Source: Chiloscyllium plagiosum
Taxonomy: Eukaryota
Direction of reading: 5' to 3'
Assembly (NCBI RefSeq): GCF_004010195.1
Contig: NC_057733.1
Span: forward strand, 46,377,816-46,441,815
Length of the DNA stretch: 64,000 nucleotides
A model generated the notes under the pieces. That model saw only the letters and a list, made by a program, of their open reading frames with translations, made no database searches and was not told the origin of the DNA. The first letter of the stretch is position 1. Every line of letters starts with the position of its first letter. The translations under genes and the position numbers were made by a program. This document shows, piece after piece, positions 5,655-62,630 of the stretch.

Positions 5655-7584
5655 AACAAATCTACTAGCTCAGCAAGCAAACTTACAACTTACATTACGT
5701 TTATCTAACCTTTTAGAGTTGCTTGAAGTAGTAATATCAACTGTGAATGACCAGTGGACATACTCCACTTAAAACTTTCAGAAGGCATTAGATGAAATAT
5801 CTCATCAGAAAATTAAATATCAGGTCATAAATTATATCACTGGCAAGGATAGAAAATTGCTTAGCTAATTTGTTCTGTATTGCCAACCCAAAAACTATTT
5901 ATGCCTATACTGCTTTTCGTTAGCTAAGCAATTTTCTTTCCTTGCCAGTGATATAATTTGCAATTTACGTAAATAATTTAGATGAAGAGGCTAAATGTAC
6001 AGTTGTCAAACCTGCAAATGAAACAAATGTAAGGAGTAAAGGAAGTTGTGAAGAGGAATCAAGGGGACTATAGAAAAATTACGGATACATGAGCTGAGTA
6101 GACAAAGGTTAGCAAATTGATTATAATGTGGGAAATTATGAAATTGTCCATTTTGGAAATAATAATTTAAAAAGCACAGTAAGAGATTGTAGATCTCTGA
6201 GATACCCAGGGATGTAGATGTCCCAGTGCATAAATCACAAAAGGAAAGTTTGTAGCTGCATCAAATAAGTAGAAAAGCTAATAGAATATCAGTTTAATGT
6301 GATGATTTTTAATATGTCATCACCAATCATTGGTGGTACTTTTTATTCATTTTCCACCAGCAATAAGTCATCTGTGGTTTCAATTAACCAATTTACATGC
6401 AAAGCTAGCAAGGGCGATGCAGTGTACCACCAAATGTGAGGGAAAGGAAGGAACAGAGGGAGCGGATTAAAGCAAAATGGAGTTGGAGAGGAGGTGATAA
6501 AGCACTGCAGCCCCTGCAGTGCCTATGTTTCTCTAAAAGTGTCAAGAATATTGGACATCACATGCTCCCTCACCAAGAATACAGAAAAACATATTTCTTC
6601 CTTTTCTTATATCCAGAAGTCCTATCACACACAACTGAATAGCTTTTCCCACCACCAAATCCCTTGTAGACATGTTCATTTATTAACCCCCACCATTAAA
6701 CCATCCTTGTTTCCAACTATTGAATTTACATGTAGAGTTCATTAAGGACAACACACTAACATCAAAGTGAGGGAGAGGTAGGGGAGGGGCTAAATCAAAA
6801 CGGAGTTGGAAGGAGAGATAAGGCACTCTTCCCCTTGAGGAGCTCCACCAACTTGTTGGCACCATCCACACCGGATAGATTTTTGGTAAGTAGTGGGGTG
6901 AAAGGCTATCAGGGGTTGGCATAAATGTGGAGATGAGGTTAAAAAGGCCAGCTACAAATCAAATGGTGGACCAGGCTTGAAGGGCCGAATGGTCTACTCC
7001 TGCTCTTAATTTGTATCTTCGTATGTTTGTAATACTATGTACTCTCATTGTATTTCATCTGCTACTGAAGTTGTCAGATACACCTTTATCACCTCCAAAC
7101 TTGACCAGTTGACTCCTCTCCATGCCAGTCTCCCAAACTCCAGCATCTATAAACTTCAGTTTATCTGAACCTCTGCTTTGTGTATTTTAACTAATCAGGC
7201 CCTTTCACTCACTATCCCTCTTCTTCCATTTAAAATACTCATTCTCATGTTTAAACCCCTTTATTGTAATGACCCTCATTATTTTATCTTCCTGAAGACA
7301 TTCACCCCTACCCTGCTTGTCCAACAGGAAGTTACTGTTTCTTACATTTGCCCTTTGATATGCACTTGCCCCATTGTTCGCCCCATCATTAGAAGCCATG
7401 CTTGCAGCAGTTTACCCCCTGTGATATACATTTCTGAAACCTTTTTCCACCTCCCTCGACCTCTCTCTTGATCAAATAAAAGTCATACAGCATGGAAAAC
7501 AGAATCTTCAATCCAACTCATCCACAGCAACCAAACATCCCAATCTGAGGTTGTAAGCTTGCTTGCTGAGCTGGAAGGTTTGTT

Positions 7585-18790: not shown

Positions 18791-19170
18791 ATCAAGATCC
18801 TGAGGGGATTGAAAGAGATGGATGTCAAAAGGATGTTTCCTCTTGTGGAAGAATCTAGAGGTAGGGGGTCTGTGGTAACCCCTACAAGTCCCACAGGGAA
18901 ATCACTAATCTCCTGTTGGAACTCATTGAGTTGAAATTCCCTTGGTAACAAGCAATGGCCTGCCCAGCCGGAACTTGGACCTGAGCACTTTACAATGCAG
19001 ATTCTGCTCTTCAGTGGTTATCTTCATTCAGAATGCCCTTCGAGAGGGAGCATGCAGCGTCCATCGCTGCTCGTGATGCCATTAGAGAGAGGTAGGGATT
19101 ACAAGAGATATGGTGCTTCATTTCCCCATCCAACATCATTTTGATTTAGTCTCTCCCCGCATCTTTGATC

Positions 19171-25544: not shown

Positions 25545-28213
25545 GAGTCTTAGAAGGTCATCTTTTATTATAAATTACATGTTGAATTCACATGTATACA
25601 AGTTTCATGATACAACTGTACATTATTATTCAAAATCAAAGCATTTAAATTCGCAAAGATGCTGCCAGCCCTGTGATTTCCATTTTAAGTTCACTGATTT
25701 GTATCAACTTTCATTGTACCCTAGTCCTGCCACTGTGAAAGCGCACATATACATGCTTGCACATGTAACAGGGAGGAGAATTCCACCCCTACAATGCACC
25801 TGATCAAGGCATTGTCCAAGGCATCAGCTCACGACTCACCAATTGTTCACAGACCTGAATTCAGATCCAGGTTTAGTTGGTCCAATCTCTTAAGCATATG
25901 CCCCTTTGCAGCCATTTTGCAAAACATGAAAAAAGACAACAGGAAAAAACTGACAAGGGTTAAGAAGCAAAAATATTTAAGTAAAAAGTGATTGTTCAAT
26001 CATAATGTTAGTAGCCACTTGACCTGCATAATTACACAAAGGCAGGCTCTTCTTTTCCACTTCTATTTGCGGTTTAGAAAAGCATACAGGGCCTGTTAAA
26101 ATATCGTTGGCATTTCATTTGTAAATCACACGTAATAGTACAATATTGCAAAACAAGGACTGACTCCAAAAAAAATCAGCCAAATCATAGGATTATTCAT
26201 TTTTTTGGCATATGGAAATCACAACCATTGACTTAATCTACAAGTTCAGATAAGTATAAAACTAATACAATCAGAAACAGTTAGATAGAAGACAGACAGC
26301 CAAAAAAAATCAGCCAAATCATAGGATTATTCATTTTTTTGGCATATGGAAATCACAACCATTGACTTAATCTACAAGTTCAGATAATTATAAAACTAAC
26401 ACAATCAGAAACAGTTAGATAGAAGACAGACAGACAGATTGGTAAACTTTTTAAAGTATCAAGTCAATTGCTTGCACAATTGCACCATGATTCACTGGTG
26501 ATCTCAATCTGGCCAGATAAAAAAAAAAGTTTTAGTTTGTCTTCTTTAAATCAGTAAATACCTCTAACCATAAGCAGGGCAGCAATTGCCCATTACTAGA
26601 TAAGCAGCAACCTCTGTAGCAGTAAAAATCTGAAGTTTTTTGTTTTATTTTTACAAAGTAGTAGAGTATATAAAGGGTCCATCCTGACATCTCATTCTGA
26701 AAAGAAATAATTTTCCAAGCAACTGTTAATCTATGCTTTTGCTCAATAAATCTTCTACTTTAGAATAGAGTATTAACCTGGAACATATTGACAGTACTTT
26801 GCATTAAACATTAGGACAAGTGGACGGAAATCTCTACTTTAGGTCAAACATTACAAGTACACAAACACTCCCAGGAATTTACAGCATTCACTAGATCAAA
26901 GTCTCTCAGTCTTTTGCTCTGAGCTTTAAGATGTGAATGTAGCTCGGTGTATAAAATTCACATACAAATAAGGCCTTAGCATCACTAGTATTGAGTGTTA
27001 ATAAAACACAATTGACCTGACGTTTCTTCTCTATAGCTACAAAAACGTATACAAGATACCAGAACAAATAACAGTCCTGTTACCAGGGATATGTAAGATT
27101 ATCCAATTATTGAACACGAAAAAGCTCACATTTCTTATTTCATACTGAAACATGTTCAATGCTATAGCTGAACATTCAGAAAGTGGCAAGTCTATTGAAA
27201 CTGAAACATTTCGAAGTTGGAAATCTGACCACAAGCCTAAATTAAAAACTTATATTTCTAATCATAAATATGAGATGGGTAGGTTTGAAGACTCCAACTA
27301 GTAATCTTTGCTTCAGTCTAAATGACAGTTGTGCACTTAAAGCCAGAAGACAGAGAAGTAATCTTACCATAAATCACAACTACATAATATGGTCCATAAG
27401 CCTGTACTGTACATCTCCAAGAAGGTCTTTGAAATTAAAGGTCAGGGCACTCCCAGCCAACGGTGCACAGGAAATCTAAATCTCAGGCTGAGGCCACATT
27501 TCATATTAAAATAAGTACAGGTTTCATGAAACATTATGCTGAATTATTCAGCTGCACAAAATGTCACAGTCACGTTTTGAGAAATCTCTAATGCGGTTAT
27601 GCTTGAGCTTAGTCACATGAAAATGATTTTCAGGACACAGCTTTCATTTGAAGTGAAGTGATAGTCACAGAACAATCCAACAAACTTGATTCAATTCTTC
27701 AATAACAGATAACCAAAGAAGGTAATGCAGTTGATCTTGTGTATAGGGGAACCTTTTAAATAAAGGACATTTTTAAGACACACAGTCAGGGAAAAGACTC
27801 GTTAGCAGCACTGAAGTCCATGGAATTATAGGACTAGTGCCAGCATGAGAAAAAATTGATTTAAGCAGAGAGCAATGCTAACGTGTTGCCTGTCAGGAAA
27901 ATTCATAAAGAGGAATCAATGTTGGTTTTCTGCATTAGGGAACAATTCAGAAGGAAAGCAAAAGGGAGCATTAGACTGCTGTAAAATTACTACCAATATT
28001 ATTTTCCACATTGATAGCACCGTCAACTGCAGGTCTCACCAACCTTAATGTGCATGCTTACCTTCATATTATAAAATATCAATATCAGTACACAGTGGTT
28101 ACAAAAGCAAAGCCACTGATCTGCATTGAATATACATATCAAACTGTACTTTGGTAATACTTAAGTTTCACTGTTGCTTGCCCAGTCAGTCAATATTAAT
28201 AACCATTCAGTAT
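25545..28213 (-). other. PYCR1: Probable ~2.7 kb 3' UTR of PYCR1 with AATAAA at 25564-25569
   Basis: AT-rich, largely transposon-poor stretch after the stop, ending at a minus-strand AATAAA just before repeat-rich DNA resumes. Confidence 0.5.
26166..26433. repeat. Tandem duplication, 2 x 134 bp with 2 mismatches, in the putative PYCR1 3' UTR
   Basis: 26166-26299 is repeated at 26300-26433. Confidence 0.9.
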
Positions 28214-44330: not shown

Positions 44331-44638
44331 TATATTCAGTACTCAGAGGGCGCTGCACTGTCGGAGGCATTGCCTTTCAGATGAGATGCTTGTTATTTTT
44401 ATTCATTGACAAGAATGAGGATGTCACTGGCTAGGCCAGTATTTGTTACCCATCTGCTCCAGAGGGTAGTTAAGGGTCAAACACATTGCTGTGGGTCTGG
44501 AGTCACATGTAGTCCAGACCAGGTAAAGATGGCAGTTTCCTTTCCTGAGGAACTAAAATGACTTGACAGAGGCTGGCATCACCAAGTCATCTTTTATTTA
44601 CATGTGGAGAGTCCTCAACACTGATCCATCTCTGTGTG

Positions 44639-46764
44639 GACACTTCTGTTTTTTTTTGGTCAATCAAGTCTATTCTTTATTAATGCATTTCAAGTACTTC
44701 AAATAAAAACTTACATTATCTTTGCACAATACTTCTTGCAACTTTTAGTAAAATGTTCCCAGTGAACAAAATTTACTGTATAAGACAGTGGGCATTAAAA
44801 TATGACAGTAGTATTGTTTTGTCTTCTTTTGGAAAAGGATATGGAAGATATACACTGTAGGGAAATAGATGGTGACATCTTGCAAAATGTCCAGATTACA
44901 GAGGAGGAAGTGCTGGATGTCTTGAAATGGTTAAAAGTGGATAAATCCCTAGGATCTGATCAGGTGTACCCAAGAACTCTGTGAGAAGCTAGAGAAGTGA
45001 TAGCTGGGCCTTTTGCTGAGATATTTGTATCATCGCTAGTCACAGTTGAGTTGCCGGAAGACTGGAGGTTGGCTAACGTGGTGCCACTGTTTAAGAAGGG
45101 CAGTAAAGACAAGCCAGGGAACTATAGACTGATGAGCTTGACCTCGGTGGTGGGCAAGTTGTTGGAGGGAATCCTGAGTGACAGGATGTACATGCATTTG
45201 GAAAGGCAAGGACTGATTCGGGATAGTCAACATGGCTTTATGCATGGGAAATCATGTCTCACAAACTTGATTGAGTTTTTTGAAGAAGTAACAAAGAAGA
45301 TTGATGAGGGCAGAGCAGTAGATGTGATCTATATGGACTTCAGTAAGGCGTTCGATAAGGTTCCCCATGGGAGCCTGATTAGCAAGGTTAGATTTCATGG
45401 AATACAGGGAAAACTAGCCATTTGGATACAGAGCTGGCTCAAAGGTAGAAGACAGAGGGTGGTGGTGGAGGGTTGTNNNNNNNNNNNNNNNNNNNNNNNN
45501 NNNNNNNNNNNNNNNNNNNNNNNNNNNNNNNNNNNNNNNNNNNNNNNNNNNNNNNNNNNNNNNNNNNNNNNNNNNNNNNNNNNNNNNNNNNNNNNNNNNN
45601 NNNNNNNNNNNNNNNNNNNNNNNNNNNNNNNNNNNNNNNNNNNNNNNNNNNNNNNNNNNNNNNNNNNNNNNNNNNNNNNNNNNNNNNNNNNNNNNNNNNN
45701 NNNNNNNNNNNNNNNNNNNNNNNNNNNNNNNNNNNNNNNNNNNNNNNNNNNNNNNNNNNNNNNNNNNNNNNNNNNNNNNNNNNNNNNNNNNNNNNNNNNN
45801 NNNNNNNNNNNNNNNNNNNNNNNNNNNNNNNNNNNNNNNNNNNNNNNNNNNNNNNNNNNNNNNNNNNNNNNNNNNNNNNNNNNNNNNNNNNNNNNNNNNN
45901 NNNNNNNNNNNNNNNNNNTATAGAGGTTTATAAAATTATGAGGGGCATGGATAGGATAAATAGACAAAGTCTTTTCCCTGGGGTGTGGGAGTCCAGAACT
46001 AGAGGGCATAGGTTTAGGGTGAGAGGGGAAATATATAAAAGAGACCTAAGCGGCAACTTTTTCACGCAGAGGGTGGTATGTGTATGGAATGAGCTGCCAG
46101 AGGATGTGGTGGAGGCTGATACAATTGCAACATTTAAGAGGCATTTGGATGGGTATATGCATAGGAAGAGTTTGGAGGGATATGGGCCGGGTGCTGGCAG
46201 GTGGGACTAGATTGGGTTGGGATATCTGGTCGGCATGGATGGGTTGGACCGAAGGATCAGTTTCCGTGCTGTACATCCCTATGACTCTAGAGGATTTTTC
46301 ATATCTATCAGAACTAATCTTGAAATGTATGGTTCAGCGCATATCTACTGAAGGAGGATTAATGACTGAAATAAAAAGAACTCGGCAGTCGAGTCCTGCC
46401 CATGTCCTGCCACAGGATAATACAAGCAAAATGTTACCATATGAAATGTTTAATACTATAGATTGTTCTTAAATGCACTTTATCAAAAGTACCGTCATTG
46501 TTTGATACAGACACTCCTGTTTATTTATTTATTTATTTTCAGGATGCCTGACACTCCTTTTTTTTTTGTTTACCCCCACACTACTGCCTAACTGCGGTAG
46601 TGCTTATTTTGACACTCCTATTTATTTATTTTTTTTTAAGCAGTGCACTTCACAAAAGGGCAGTGCTGTGTGATCAACTCCTGTTTATTTTTTTCGGTTT
46701 TTTTCTTATTTAATCCCCACACTACTGCCTAACTGCGGTAGTACTTATTTTGACACTCCTGTTT
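44639..46764. repeat. Array of six GACACTCCTGTTT target duplications separated by five oligo(A)-tailed retro-inserts
   Basis: Copies start at 44639, 46510, 46550, 46611, 46677 (partial) and 46752; the first five are followed by a T-rich tract and an insert. Confidence 0.8.
44830..46289 (+). mobile_element. Young CR1/HER1 LINE 3' portion (RT), containing assembly gap 45477-45918
   Basis: ORF 44997: PEDWRLANVVPLFKKG..PGNYR..SLTSVVGKLLE..QHGF..SCLTNL..YMDFSKAFDKVPH; 3' tail ctatgactcta. Confidence 0.92.
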
Positions 46765-47267
46765 ATATCTGTCAGCCAGTGCTCCCTGATTGGATCAGAT
46801 TAACAGCCTCAGTCAGGGAACTCATATTCCACAATAATTACAGGACATCAGTGAACCGGGTGGGTTTTTCCCAACAATCAACAGTGGATTTGTAGTCATT
46901 GTTAGCTTCTTAACTTCAGATTTTTGTCAAATTCAAATTCCACCAGTTGCCAACCTGATTTACTGGTATATTACCTGGGTCTCTGGAGTAGTAACAATCC
47001 AGTACTAATACCACTAGGCCATCAACTCCCCATGCATTGAAAGGTGGGCTCAAAATATCCCAAAGCAGCAACTCCATTGTCAGATCAACCTCTTGAAAAA
47101 TTAGAAACTTTGGCATAAAAGTCATAGAGTCATAGAGATGTACAGCACAGACACAGACTCTTTGGTCCAACTATCCCAACTTAATCTAGTCCCATTTGCC
47201 AGCACTTGGCCCATATCCCTCTAAACCCTTCCTATTCATATACCATTCCAGATGCCTTTTAAATGTT

Positions 47268-61760: not shown

Positions 61761-62630
61761 CAGCCTTTACCCGCACTGCCTTTAACCCCCACCGCCTTTT
61801 ACCCCCCCCCCCCAACTGCCTTTAACCCCCACCGCCTTTTACCCCCCCCCCAACTGNNNNNNNNNNNNNNNNNNNNNNNNNNNNNNNNNNNNNNNNNNNN
61901 NNNNNNNNNNNNNNNNNNNNNNNNNNNNNNNNNNNNNNNNNNNNNNNNNNNNNNNNNNNNNNNNNNNNNNNNNNNNNNNNNNNNNNNNNNNNNNNNNNNN
62001 NNNNNNNNNNNNNNNNNNNNNNNNNNNNNNNNNNNNNNNNNNNNNNNNNNNNNNNNNNNNNNNNNNNNNNNNNNNNNNNNNNNNNNNNNNNNNNNNNNNN
62101 NNNNNNNNNNNNNNNNNNNNNNNNNNNNNNNNNNNNNNNNNNNNNNNNNNNNNNNNNNNNNNNNNNNNNNNNNNNNNNNNNNNNNNNNNNNNNNNNNNNN
62201 NNNNNNNNNNNNNNNNNNNNNNNNNNNNNNNNNNNNNNNNNNNNNNNNNNNNNNNNNNNNNNNNNNNNNNNNNNNNNNNNNNNNNNNNNNNNNNNNNNNN
62301 NNNNNNNNCGATCCGACTTCCCACTGTCTTCTACCCCTTTTTTACCCCCACCAGCTATTACTGCTCCACTAGTTTTTAACCCCAGCACCTGTTACACCCA
62401 CCACATTTTACTGCCCTAGTCCTTATTGCCCCCCACTGCACTGTCACTGTCTCAGCATCTGTTACCCCCACTGTCCTTTTACTGCCACACTAACTCCTCC
62501 CCGGAACAATTACTGCCACCACCTTTTACCCAGCATGTTTAATTGGCACCAGTTTATACCCAGCACATTTTACCCCACTAGCTTTTACCCTCATCAGCTT
62601 CTACCGCCTGCAGCTTTTTCCTCCCCACCT
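61761..62630. repeat. Degenerate C-rich tandem repeat (TTT(T/A)ACCCCC(n)ACCGCC-like units) directly upstream of the MYADML2 ATG, spanning an assembly gap
   Basis: Repeated tttaaccccc/ttttaccccc...accgcc/aactgcc units on both sides of the N run. Confidence 0.8.

Follow-up and report, generated by a model that had tools for sequence, protein, structure and literature searches.

The window analysed here, 64,000 nucleotides of the Chiloscyllium plagiosum genome (C24:46377816-46441815), contains an array at 44639-46764 in which short copies of one target sequence alternate with tailed inserts. We consider it likely, with good confidence, that such arrays are the work of a LINE of the Tx1 clade that prefers the TATA box of a long terminal repeat (LTR), inserts there in one orientation and stacks newer units on the TATA side. 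At this locus, it would have acted three times, depositing first the 3' end of an ADAM10 mRNA and, in the two later events, read-through transcripts of its own, each bearing a copy of the target from its donor locus. The array is thus likely a coarse, chronologically layered stack of RNA copies, most of them from the LINE, and not a CRISPR-like system.

Targeting of this kind is already known: Tx1 families that target LTRs, and re-insertion in tandem, have been published (Kojima 2015; McGurk and Barbash 2018). What is added here is a test of polarity, the import of target copies, the inheritance of junctions between neighbouring units, and the presence of mRNA cargo. In the following, we describe the array, the LINE and its target, and discuss how the array may have grown.

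The array in the window

The observation itself is real. The 13-base target copies of the original prediction were recovered at 44639 (one mismatch), 46510, 46550 (one mismatch), 46611 (one mismatch) and 46752, as were the partial copy that brings their number to six (a 10-mer at 46677-46686), the T-rich tracts behind copies 1-5, the passage of copy 6 into the host, and the five inserts at their positions. The number of 13-mers in the window is weak evidence when taken alone (six with at most two mismatches against 2.3 expected, a value reached in 2 of 100 shuffles). What lies beyond chance is their clustering, with four 13-mers and the partial copy in 255 bases, together with the match to empty host copies elsewhere in the 3.56 Gb genome that was searched.

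On its left, the array is bordered by the part of the host LTR that lies downstream of the TATA box (R/U5 side; 44556-44638, minus strand); it has an internal deletion and a worn end, and is 81% identical to natural empty LTR copies at 44579-44632. Target copy 1 (44639-44651, plus strand), the left target-site duplicate, has a matching junction in run X17. It is followed by a poly(A) tail and the 3'-most 173 nt of an ADAM10 mRNA (44652-44830, minus strand), which are 96% identical to a single-copy source at C36:18333509-18333689 with ADAM10 exons upstream. The upstream 220 nt of the same 3' UTR piece, truncated at the 5' end and 93% identical to the source, lie at 46288-46509 (minus strand). 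Between the two halves sits a later-inserted 3' fragment of a very high-copy LINE ORF2 (44831-46289, plus strand), which we take to be CR1. It has an RT-like open frame on the plus strand, a 442-base N gap at 45477-45918 and a summed contig depth of about 1e6, and is absent from the source.

Target copy 2 (46510-46522, plus strand), the duplicate from the ADAM10 insertion, has its junction in runs X1 and X6. The next block (46523-46562, minus strand) comprises a tail, a 10-nt stub and target copy 3. Matches of a 16-mer in the genome identify stub and copy as flanking sequence from another LTR variant, which likely arrived by 3' transduction. Hairpin 1 (46574-46610, minus strand) consists of the 3'-terminal 37 nt of the Tx1 LINE, with 92% identity to its 3' end, and is followed by target copy 4 (46611-46623, plus strand), a 13-mer match. 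A tail, a 39-nt internal piece of the Tx1 3' UTR (90-92% identical to positions 150-200) and the 10-nt target copy 5 occupy 46624-46686 (minus strand) and, by comparison with locus L301, likely form one block with hairpin 2 (46715-46751, minus strand). This second hairpin corresponds to the same 37 nt of the LINE; it shares the 5' junction of hairpin 1 and differs from it by one base. Both hairpins belong to an older subtype. Target copy 6 (46752-46764, plus strand), again a 13-mer match, is the sole copy with an intact TATA-side flank and, from the polarity test below, the presumed site of the next insertion. Beyond it, the LTR resumes with the TATA box (about 46762-46768) and its truncated upstream (U3) part (46765-46829, minus strand; 85% identical to natural empty copies).

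Two details of the original prediction needed correction. A duplicated target with a fixed length of 13 bases does not describe these loci: the duplication measures 9-14 bases in 23 of the 26 loci with two flanks, 13 bases in only five of them, and in the other three it is 44 bases long (one) or undefined (two). The hairpins do fold, but modestly (z -2.7 and -1.2; -1.0 for the 39-nt piece). As members of a known RNA family they were rejected, since the five Rfam matches at the array locus all fall far below the gathering scores. Tandem Repeats Finder did not report the array when run on the locus.

A LINE of the Tx1 clade

Extending the hairpin-tailed inserts in the 5' direction leads into a 3' UTR and then into a Tx1-like ORF2, which supports the proposed clade. 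The ORF in L131 encodes an apurinic-type endonuclease (PF03372, 6e-13) ahead of a reverse transcriptase (PF00078, 5e-30), and ORF2 shares 448 of 892 positions with that of Xenopus Tx1L (UniRef YTX2_XENLA), that is, 50% identity across ~880 aa and 99% of the query. Tx1L is the best functionally named homolog of ORF2 in pairwise comparison. An upstream ORF in L071, a candidate ORF1, shows a CX2CX4HX4C motif of the zinc-knuckle type without a Pfam match. The copies of this LINE exhibit poly(A) tails, 5' truncations and target-site duplications, and a degenerate 33-mer of the hairpin has 3,496 exact matches genome-wide (control: 0).

That the LINE is active, as originally proposed, was not borne out, given the older subtype of the hairpins in the window and the lack of a gap-free intact ORF2 in 20 long copies, in which the longest gap-free open stretch is 972 aa. 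ORFs of 1,200-1,400 aa were rejected as intact ORF2 because their frames pass through N gaps.

The truncation points of the LINE peak at 30-49, 70-79, 170-179 and 190-199. A hot spot of 5' truncation at about position 172 of the 3' UTR falls within a second stem-loop (L032, L035-L037, L043, L046, L086). Two older, isolated fragments of the Tx1 3' region (77-85%) lie elsewhere in the window, at 6777-6849 (plus strand) and 19113-19158 (minus strand).

Preference for the TATA box of an LTR

The host is a repeat of ~240 bases with TG...CA ends, here on the minus strand, and its empty copies place the target at a TATA-like motif. An LTR end followed by a primer-site-like TGGC(A/G)AC was found at 83 places (control: 0). 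The internal region of L267 yields matches to protease, reverse transcriptase and RNase H in that order, all of them weak and under the Pfam cut-offs; an integrase was not found there. The copies of the element are degraded. Judged by its sequence, the LTR is likely of the Gypsy type. A further fragment of it (79%) lies at 800-847 of the window.

Target preference was assessed on contig C1, which holds all 66 clusters formed by 95 of the first 100 listed hairpin matches; these were chosen by exact match and are therefore biased to young copies. Flanks within 1.5 kb were compared to natural LTR copies from which everything outside the LTR had been trimmed. An LTR flank in the same orientation is present in 40 of the 66 clusters and one in the opposite orientation in a single cluster. 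The LTR is broken precisely at the target in 38 clusters (opposite orientation: 2), and in the background 1 of 36 tiles matches the LTR. The possibility, raised with the original prediction, that the hairpin has no target preference in the genome is thus contradicted in this sample (38 versus 2 of 66).

The idea of a LINE specific for one target survives only in part, as a preference for the TATA site of the LTR, which accounts for only ~60% of the clusters. For the other 26 of 66, the 1.5 kb compared contain no LTR flank; N gaps interrupt some of these clusters, and the remaining ones lie at other T-rich sites, some as stacks. Together with the non-LTR stacks in L073, L086 and L301, this indicates that flank recognition is only part of the story. 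Stacks with duplicated targets at non-LTR sites were seen in L073, L086, L301, L044 and L238, so that the re-use of a site does not need an LTR.

On the forward strand, 99 canonical sites are filled and 144 empty, about 40% occupancy among copies with exact flanks; the count of filled sites on the reverse strand (340) is inflated by a variable gap in the search pattern and was left out. Exact patterns detect 282 empty canonical sites on both strands. Of 40 filled loci that were opened, all but one, a false positive, are real, though the flank that matched turned out in several cases to be a stub inside an array. The bases behind TGTTT are ATT in 19 of the 40, TTT in 10 and others in 11 (the search pattern itself demanded Ts), which would suggest priming after both TGTTT and TGTTTAT. 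Each locus has its own truncation points and duplication lengths, which argues for independent events.

Polar growth of the arrays

The order of insertion was read from 206 hairpin units in 92 arrays at 106 loci, split into two subtypes by one diagnostic base. Per 33 bases, private mismatches number 0.57 in the young subtype (n 120) and 2.06 in the old subtype (n 84). In 18 of 19 arrays with both subtypes, old units lie mostly to the left of young ones; the reverse was never seen and one array is tied (p 7.6e-6; L075 entered this count as two arrays). Likewise, 13 arrays are old at the start and young at the end, with none in the reverse order, and the direction is the same in both samples (15 and 3 arrays). 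Five mixed arrays have an out-of-order unit (L031, L073, L077, L090, L226).

This age order of the subtypes implies growth on the TATA side. The predicted polarity, with the oldest unit leftmost, therefore stands, although the argument first put forward for it, the divergence of the left copy, has no power: the leftmost copy is the more diverged in 22 arrays and the rightmost in 15, with 11 ties (p 0.32). Growth would probably proceed on the TATA side because only the copy on that side retains the flank that the enzyme reads.

Probable import of target copies, and shared junctions

The 16-mer used for the stub with target copy 3 has 71 matches in the genome. Among the first 30, 21 are native LTR flank, seven are foreign stubs and two are non-LTR; the seven foreign stubs come after a T tract and are followed in turn by a further tract and a hairpin. 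By these matches, the stub with copy 3 is the flank of another, native LTR variant, and it is unlike the locus's own left flank, both in G000 and in run X17. In L272, a foreign LTR stub, target, tail and hairpin all lie inside the locus's own 14-base duplication. Correspondingly, L301, at a non-LTR site, has its own 15-base duplication around a LINE 3' UTR piece, a 10-base target, a tail and a hairpin, and its 10-base target and junction are those of copy 5 in the window. The variant of the 39-nt piece seen in the window occurs in 2 of 106 other sampled loci and also in L301. The copy-5 junction has four matches in the genome; two of them, on C17 (L302, L303), occur with the common LINE variant, so that this junction is able to arise independently. 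Copy 6 is longer than copy 5.

We regard it as very probable that copy 3 was imported and as probable that copy 5 was. The proposal that the target is regenerated at each insertion thus holds for the duplications, but not for copies 3 and 5, which were likely carried in on RNA, as the blocks in L272 and L301 suggest. Consequently, the five inserts of the window likely go back to three events, namely ADAM10, the stub with hairpin 1, and the 39-nt piece with hairpin 2, bounded by target copies 1, 2, 4 and 6. No donor locus of the stub or of the 39-nt piece was found among the genome copies examined.

Among 164 units with a defined 5' end at 71 loci, the 5' junction is common to 87 of 232 pairs within a locus versus 9 of 13,127 pairs between loci. 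Such sharing occurs in 19 of 38 loci with several units, and in five loci it extends across old and young subtypes. The two hairpins of the window have a common junction as well. Junctions common to both subtypes do not fit simple duplication, unless conversion came after. Homology-assisted joining is known from work on L1 and R2, and the shared junctions likely reflect a comparable step in which the new cDNA would anneal to the resident copy upstream and copy DNA to the nick.

ADAM10 and other captured RNAs

The 390-nt insert has a single other copy in the genome, on C36, where its two halves abut (source positions 1678|1678) without LINE, tail or target, which supports the join across the N gap in the window. 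The source lies 1.4-1.8 kb beyond the stop codon of a gene with an exon matching human ADAM10 (E 4e-40), and the piece falls wholly in the last exon. It bears the marks of a processed pseudogene: a single-copy source at the 3' end of a gene, a poly(A) signal (AATAAA, 18 nt ahead of the tail), an untemplated tail and a target duplication. We accordingly identify it from its sequence as the 3' end of an ADAM10 mRNA, of the processed pseudogene type. RNA run X22 had no reads on the ADAM10 3' UTR in the 6% sampled, too little to weigh either way. Downstream of ADAM10, the opposite strand carries lipase-like exons (G000 C36:18338000-18341000, L094), presumably of LIPC, in what we take to be the usual vertebrate gene order.

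The junction of ADAM10, target and tail was seen in runs labelled organism A and organism B, and that of tail, target and LTR in organism C. With junctions under three organism labels, the insertion is shared and likely old. In run X6 (organism label B; L062:1285 and 1430-1681), the tract behind target copy 2 is unlike that of the window, and one contig passes the point of the CR1-type insertion without it; this contig may represent the source gene or an ortholog lacking the later insertions.

The original prediction regarded the inserts as a record of RNA 3' ends. Their origin from RNA was upheld, but only the ADAM10 piece is a captured cellular RNA; three of the five come from the LINE's own 3' UTR and one from LTR sequence. 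The capture of cellular RNA is nevertheless not confined to this locus. L195 (G000 C2:130633135-130633795) carries the 3' end of a sorting-nexin (SNX1/2-like) mRNA at the LTR target, with two GT-AG introns removed relative to its source at C2:69760205-69761710, and L217 (432-540), also at the LTR target, a retrocopy of an entire 5S rRNA, with a T tract and a duplication of 12 bases.

Sorted by eye, the first inserts of the 40 filled loci are the LINE itself in 21 cases, a second family in three, LTR flank in six and other sequence in nine, the last being the false positive. The second repeat family at this target has its own 3' end and GC-rich internal repeats (L204, L218, L230, L014, L021, L299). 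Since tblastn of L204, L218, L230, L014 and L299 found no ORF2-like sequence, this family is probably non-autonomous; L230 carries an inverted copy of its 3' end. Other tailed inserts at the target were seen in L191, L205, L207, L212, L214, L215, L222 and L296. Apart from the 5S match, Rfam searches of seven loci with tailed inserts returned nothing.

Alternative explanations

That the array is an assembly artefact is hardly credible. There is an N gap within the region, and among the matches listed no independent contig crosses 46604-46764; however, contigs of other public runs span 46262-46603 and 46390-46603, both ADAM10 junctions are independently covered, the units are not identical to one another, and the source halves abut. 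Stacks could also have arisen mainly at the DNA level, by tandem duplication through unequal exchange or slippage once one or two insertions were in place, with shared junctions as simple copies. Such duplication would explain why half of the multi-unit loci share junctions, it is known in R1 arrays (PMC5932611), and near-identical higher-order blocks of several units in L031 and L076 are probably due to unequal exchange. As a general explanation, it is nonetheless improbable: the sharing of junctions across hairpin subtypes in five loci, the polar age order, the varying tails and carried pieces, and the unlike neighbours of the two hairpins in the window all speak against it. Finally, the preference might be only apparent if the LTR element, a mobile element in many copies, had amplified one filled LTR. 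The chance of this is close to nil, given that truncation points, tails, cargo and duplication lengths vary by locus and that 282 canonical sites are empty; moreover, amplification needs junctions shared between loci, which the 9 of 13,127 pairs contradict.

The original prediction envisaged five separate insertions in situ, each adding a single target copy and some taking place at copies within the array or on its left, with the stub and the 39-nt piece as separately tailed RNA fragments. In its favour, 11 of the 40 filled loci open with an internal LINE piece after the tail (judged by eye), L202 and L225 have no hairpin behind this piece, so that 3'-shortened inserts do exist, out-of-order units occur, and the copy-5 junction recurs independently on C17. 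We still find it unlikely, because the stub differs from the left flank found at this locus, both in G000 and in run X17, copy 6, being longer than copy 5, was not copied from it, the same blocks lie whole inside the duplications of other loci, and the polarity is 18 to 0. More improbable by far is that the arrays serve as a CRISPR-like memory under selection, or as a means for the host to disable LTR promoters. Polar growth would suit such a role, and at about 40% of canonical sites an insertion comes to lie between the TATA box and the portion of the LTR that is transcribed. Yet most units are the LINE's own 3' end, the cellular RNAs among the cargo are of the ordinary housekeeping kind, the lengths of repeats and units differ greatly, and no Rfam family is found at the locus.

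Proposed mechanism

For the reading we prefer, successive insertions by a Tx1-clade LINE on the TATA side, a mechanism can be proposed from the anatomy of the arrays and from target-primed reverse transcription, which is well established. The endonuclease would nick after TGTTT or TGTTTAT, and the T-ended strand would prime on any poly(A) RNA bound by ORF2. Repair would duplicate 9-14 bases and leave the TATA-side flank only at the right-hand copy, which could then be cut again. With weak termination, transcripts would pass the donor's tail, its target copy and neighbouring sequence, either LTR flank or an older truncated unit, and all of this would arrive as a single block. The new cDNA would likely end by annealing to the adjacent resident copy upstream and so acquire the same 5' junction.

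A bolder and decidedly tentative proposal, which we hold to be possible but on balance do not favour, is that the Tx1 machinery is a natural one-directional writer of RNA into a DNA tape in a vertebrate. It would read the TATA-side flank, rewrite its own landing site, join entries by homology, and leave hundreds to thousands of dispersed, time-ordered logs of germ-line RNA, comprising its own subfamilies, mRNAs and 5S rRNA, in which nested transduced tags give the genealogy of the donors.

Comparison with known systems

Tx1L of Xenopus laevis, the type element of the Tx1 clade, resembles the shark LINE in its ORF2 (endonuclease and reverse transcriptase, 50% identity over 880 aa). The text of Kojima 2015 (PMC4494074) describes its insertion into another transposon, Tx1D. 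By contrast, where Tx1L uses a piggyBac-type element, the shark LINE targets the TATA site within an LTR, and it forms deep stacks of very short 3' ends. The same text reports that the crocodilian families Tx1-8_Crp, Tx1-4_AMi and Tx1-Mar prefer LTR retrotransposons, and explains tandem SINEU-3 insertions around a target-site duplication by sequential insertion (PMC4494074). Like the shark array, these combine trans-mobilised cargo with a common target, and by the measure of specificity given there (more than 20% of flanks; PMC4494074), the shark LINE reaches 61% (40 of 66 clusters, against 1 of 66 in the opposite orientation). In the text consulted, that paper gives no TATA-box target, polarity test, 3'-transduced target copies or mRNA cargo at the target for the crocodilian families (PMC4494074).

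For Drosophila, the text of McGurk and Barbash 2018 (PMC5932611) attributes tandems of R1 and other elements to double insertion. As in the shark stacks, the target is left between head-to-tail, often 5'-truncated copies, with unequal exchange later; R1, however, targets 28S rDNA, whereas the shark LINE has built many small, dispersed arrays of mixed cargo with an age gradient. The 3' transduction and processed pseudogenes of L1, so far as they are described in PMC12016303, are similar in that read-through flank and cellular mRNAs are copied with a tail and a target duplication, but L1 has no such narrow target, and the flank transduced by the shark LINE itself duplicates the target and earlier units. 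A literature search that was thin on subscription journals and Repbase reports retrieved no work on this LINE family, and none on targeting of a TATA box or on Tx1 stacks with polarity.

The arrays were originally likened to a chronological record of the CRISPR type. CRISPR arrays have a repeat-insert-repeat shape and grow at one end, and this much of the analogy holds: the shape is the same, and acquisition is polar in 18 of 19 mixed arrays. All else differs. The shark array is made by retrotransposition, its inserts measure 10 to 390 nt here and up to kilobases elsewhere, its duplication is 9-14 nt long, and its content is mostly LINE self sequence rather than foreign spacers, as the first inserts of the filled loci illustrate (the LINE itself in 21 of 40).

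Implications and further features of the window

The arrays make the order in which LINE subfamilies and cellular RNAs were copied testable by sequence alone, and the transduced tags in them could tell which donor loci were active. They also bear on the question of how a LINE completes its 5' end beside a resident copy. Insertion into the TATA box at about 40% of canonical LTR sites may affect the promoter activity of the LTR. An endonuclease-reverse transcriptase that renews its own site and works in one direction would also be interesting for site-directed integration and for the ordered recording of information in DNA.

Apart from the array, the window contains a 134-base tandem duplication with 98% identity (26166-26433) and a second N gap of 452 bases (61857-62308), which lies next to C-rich short tandem repeats.
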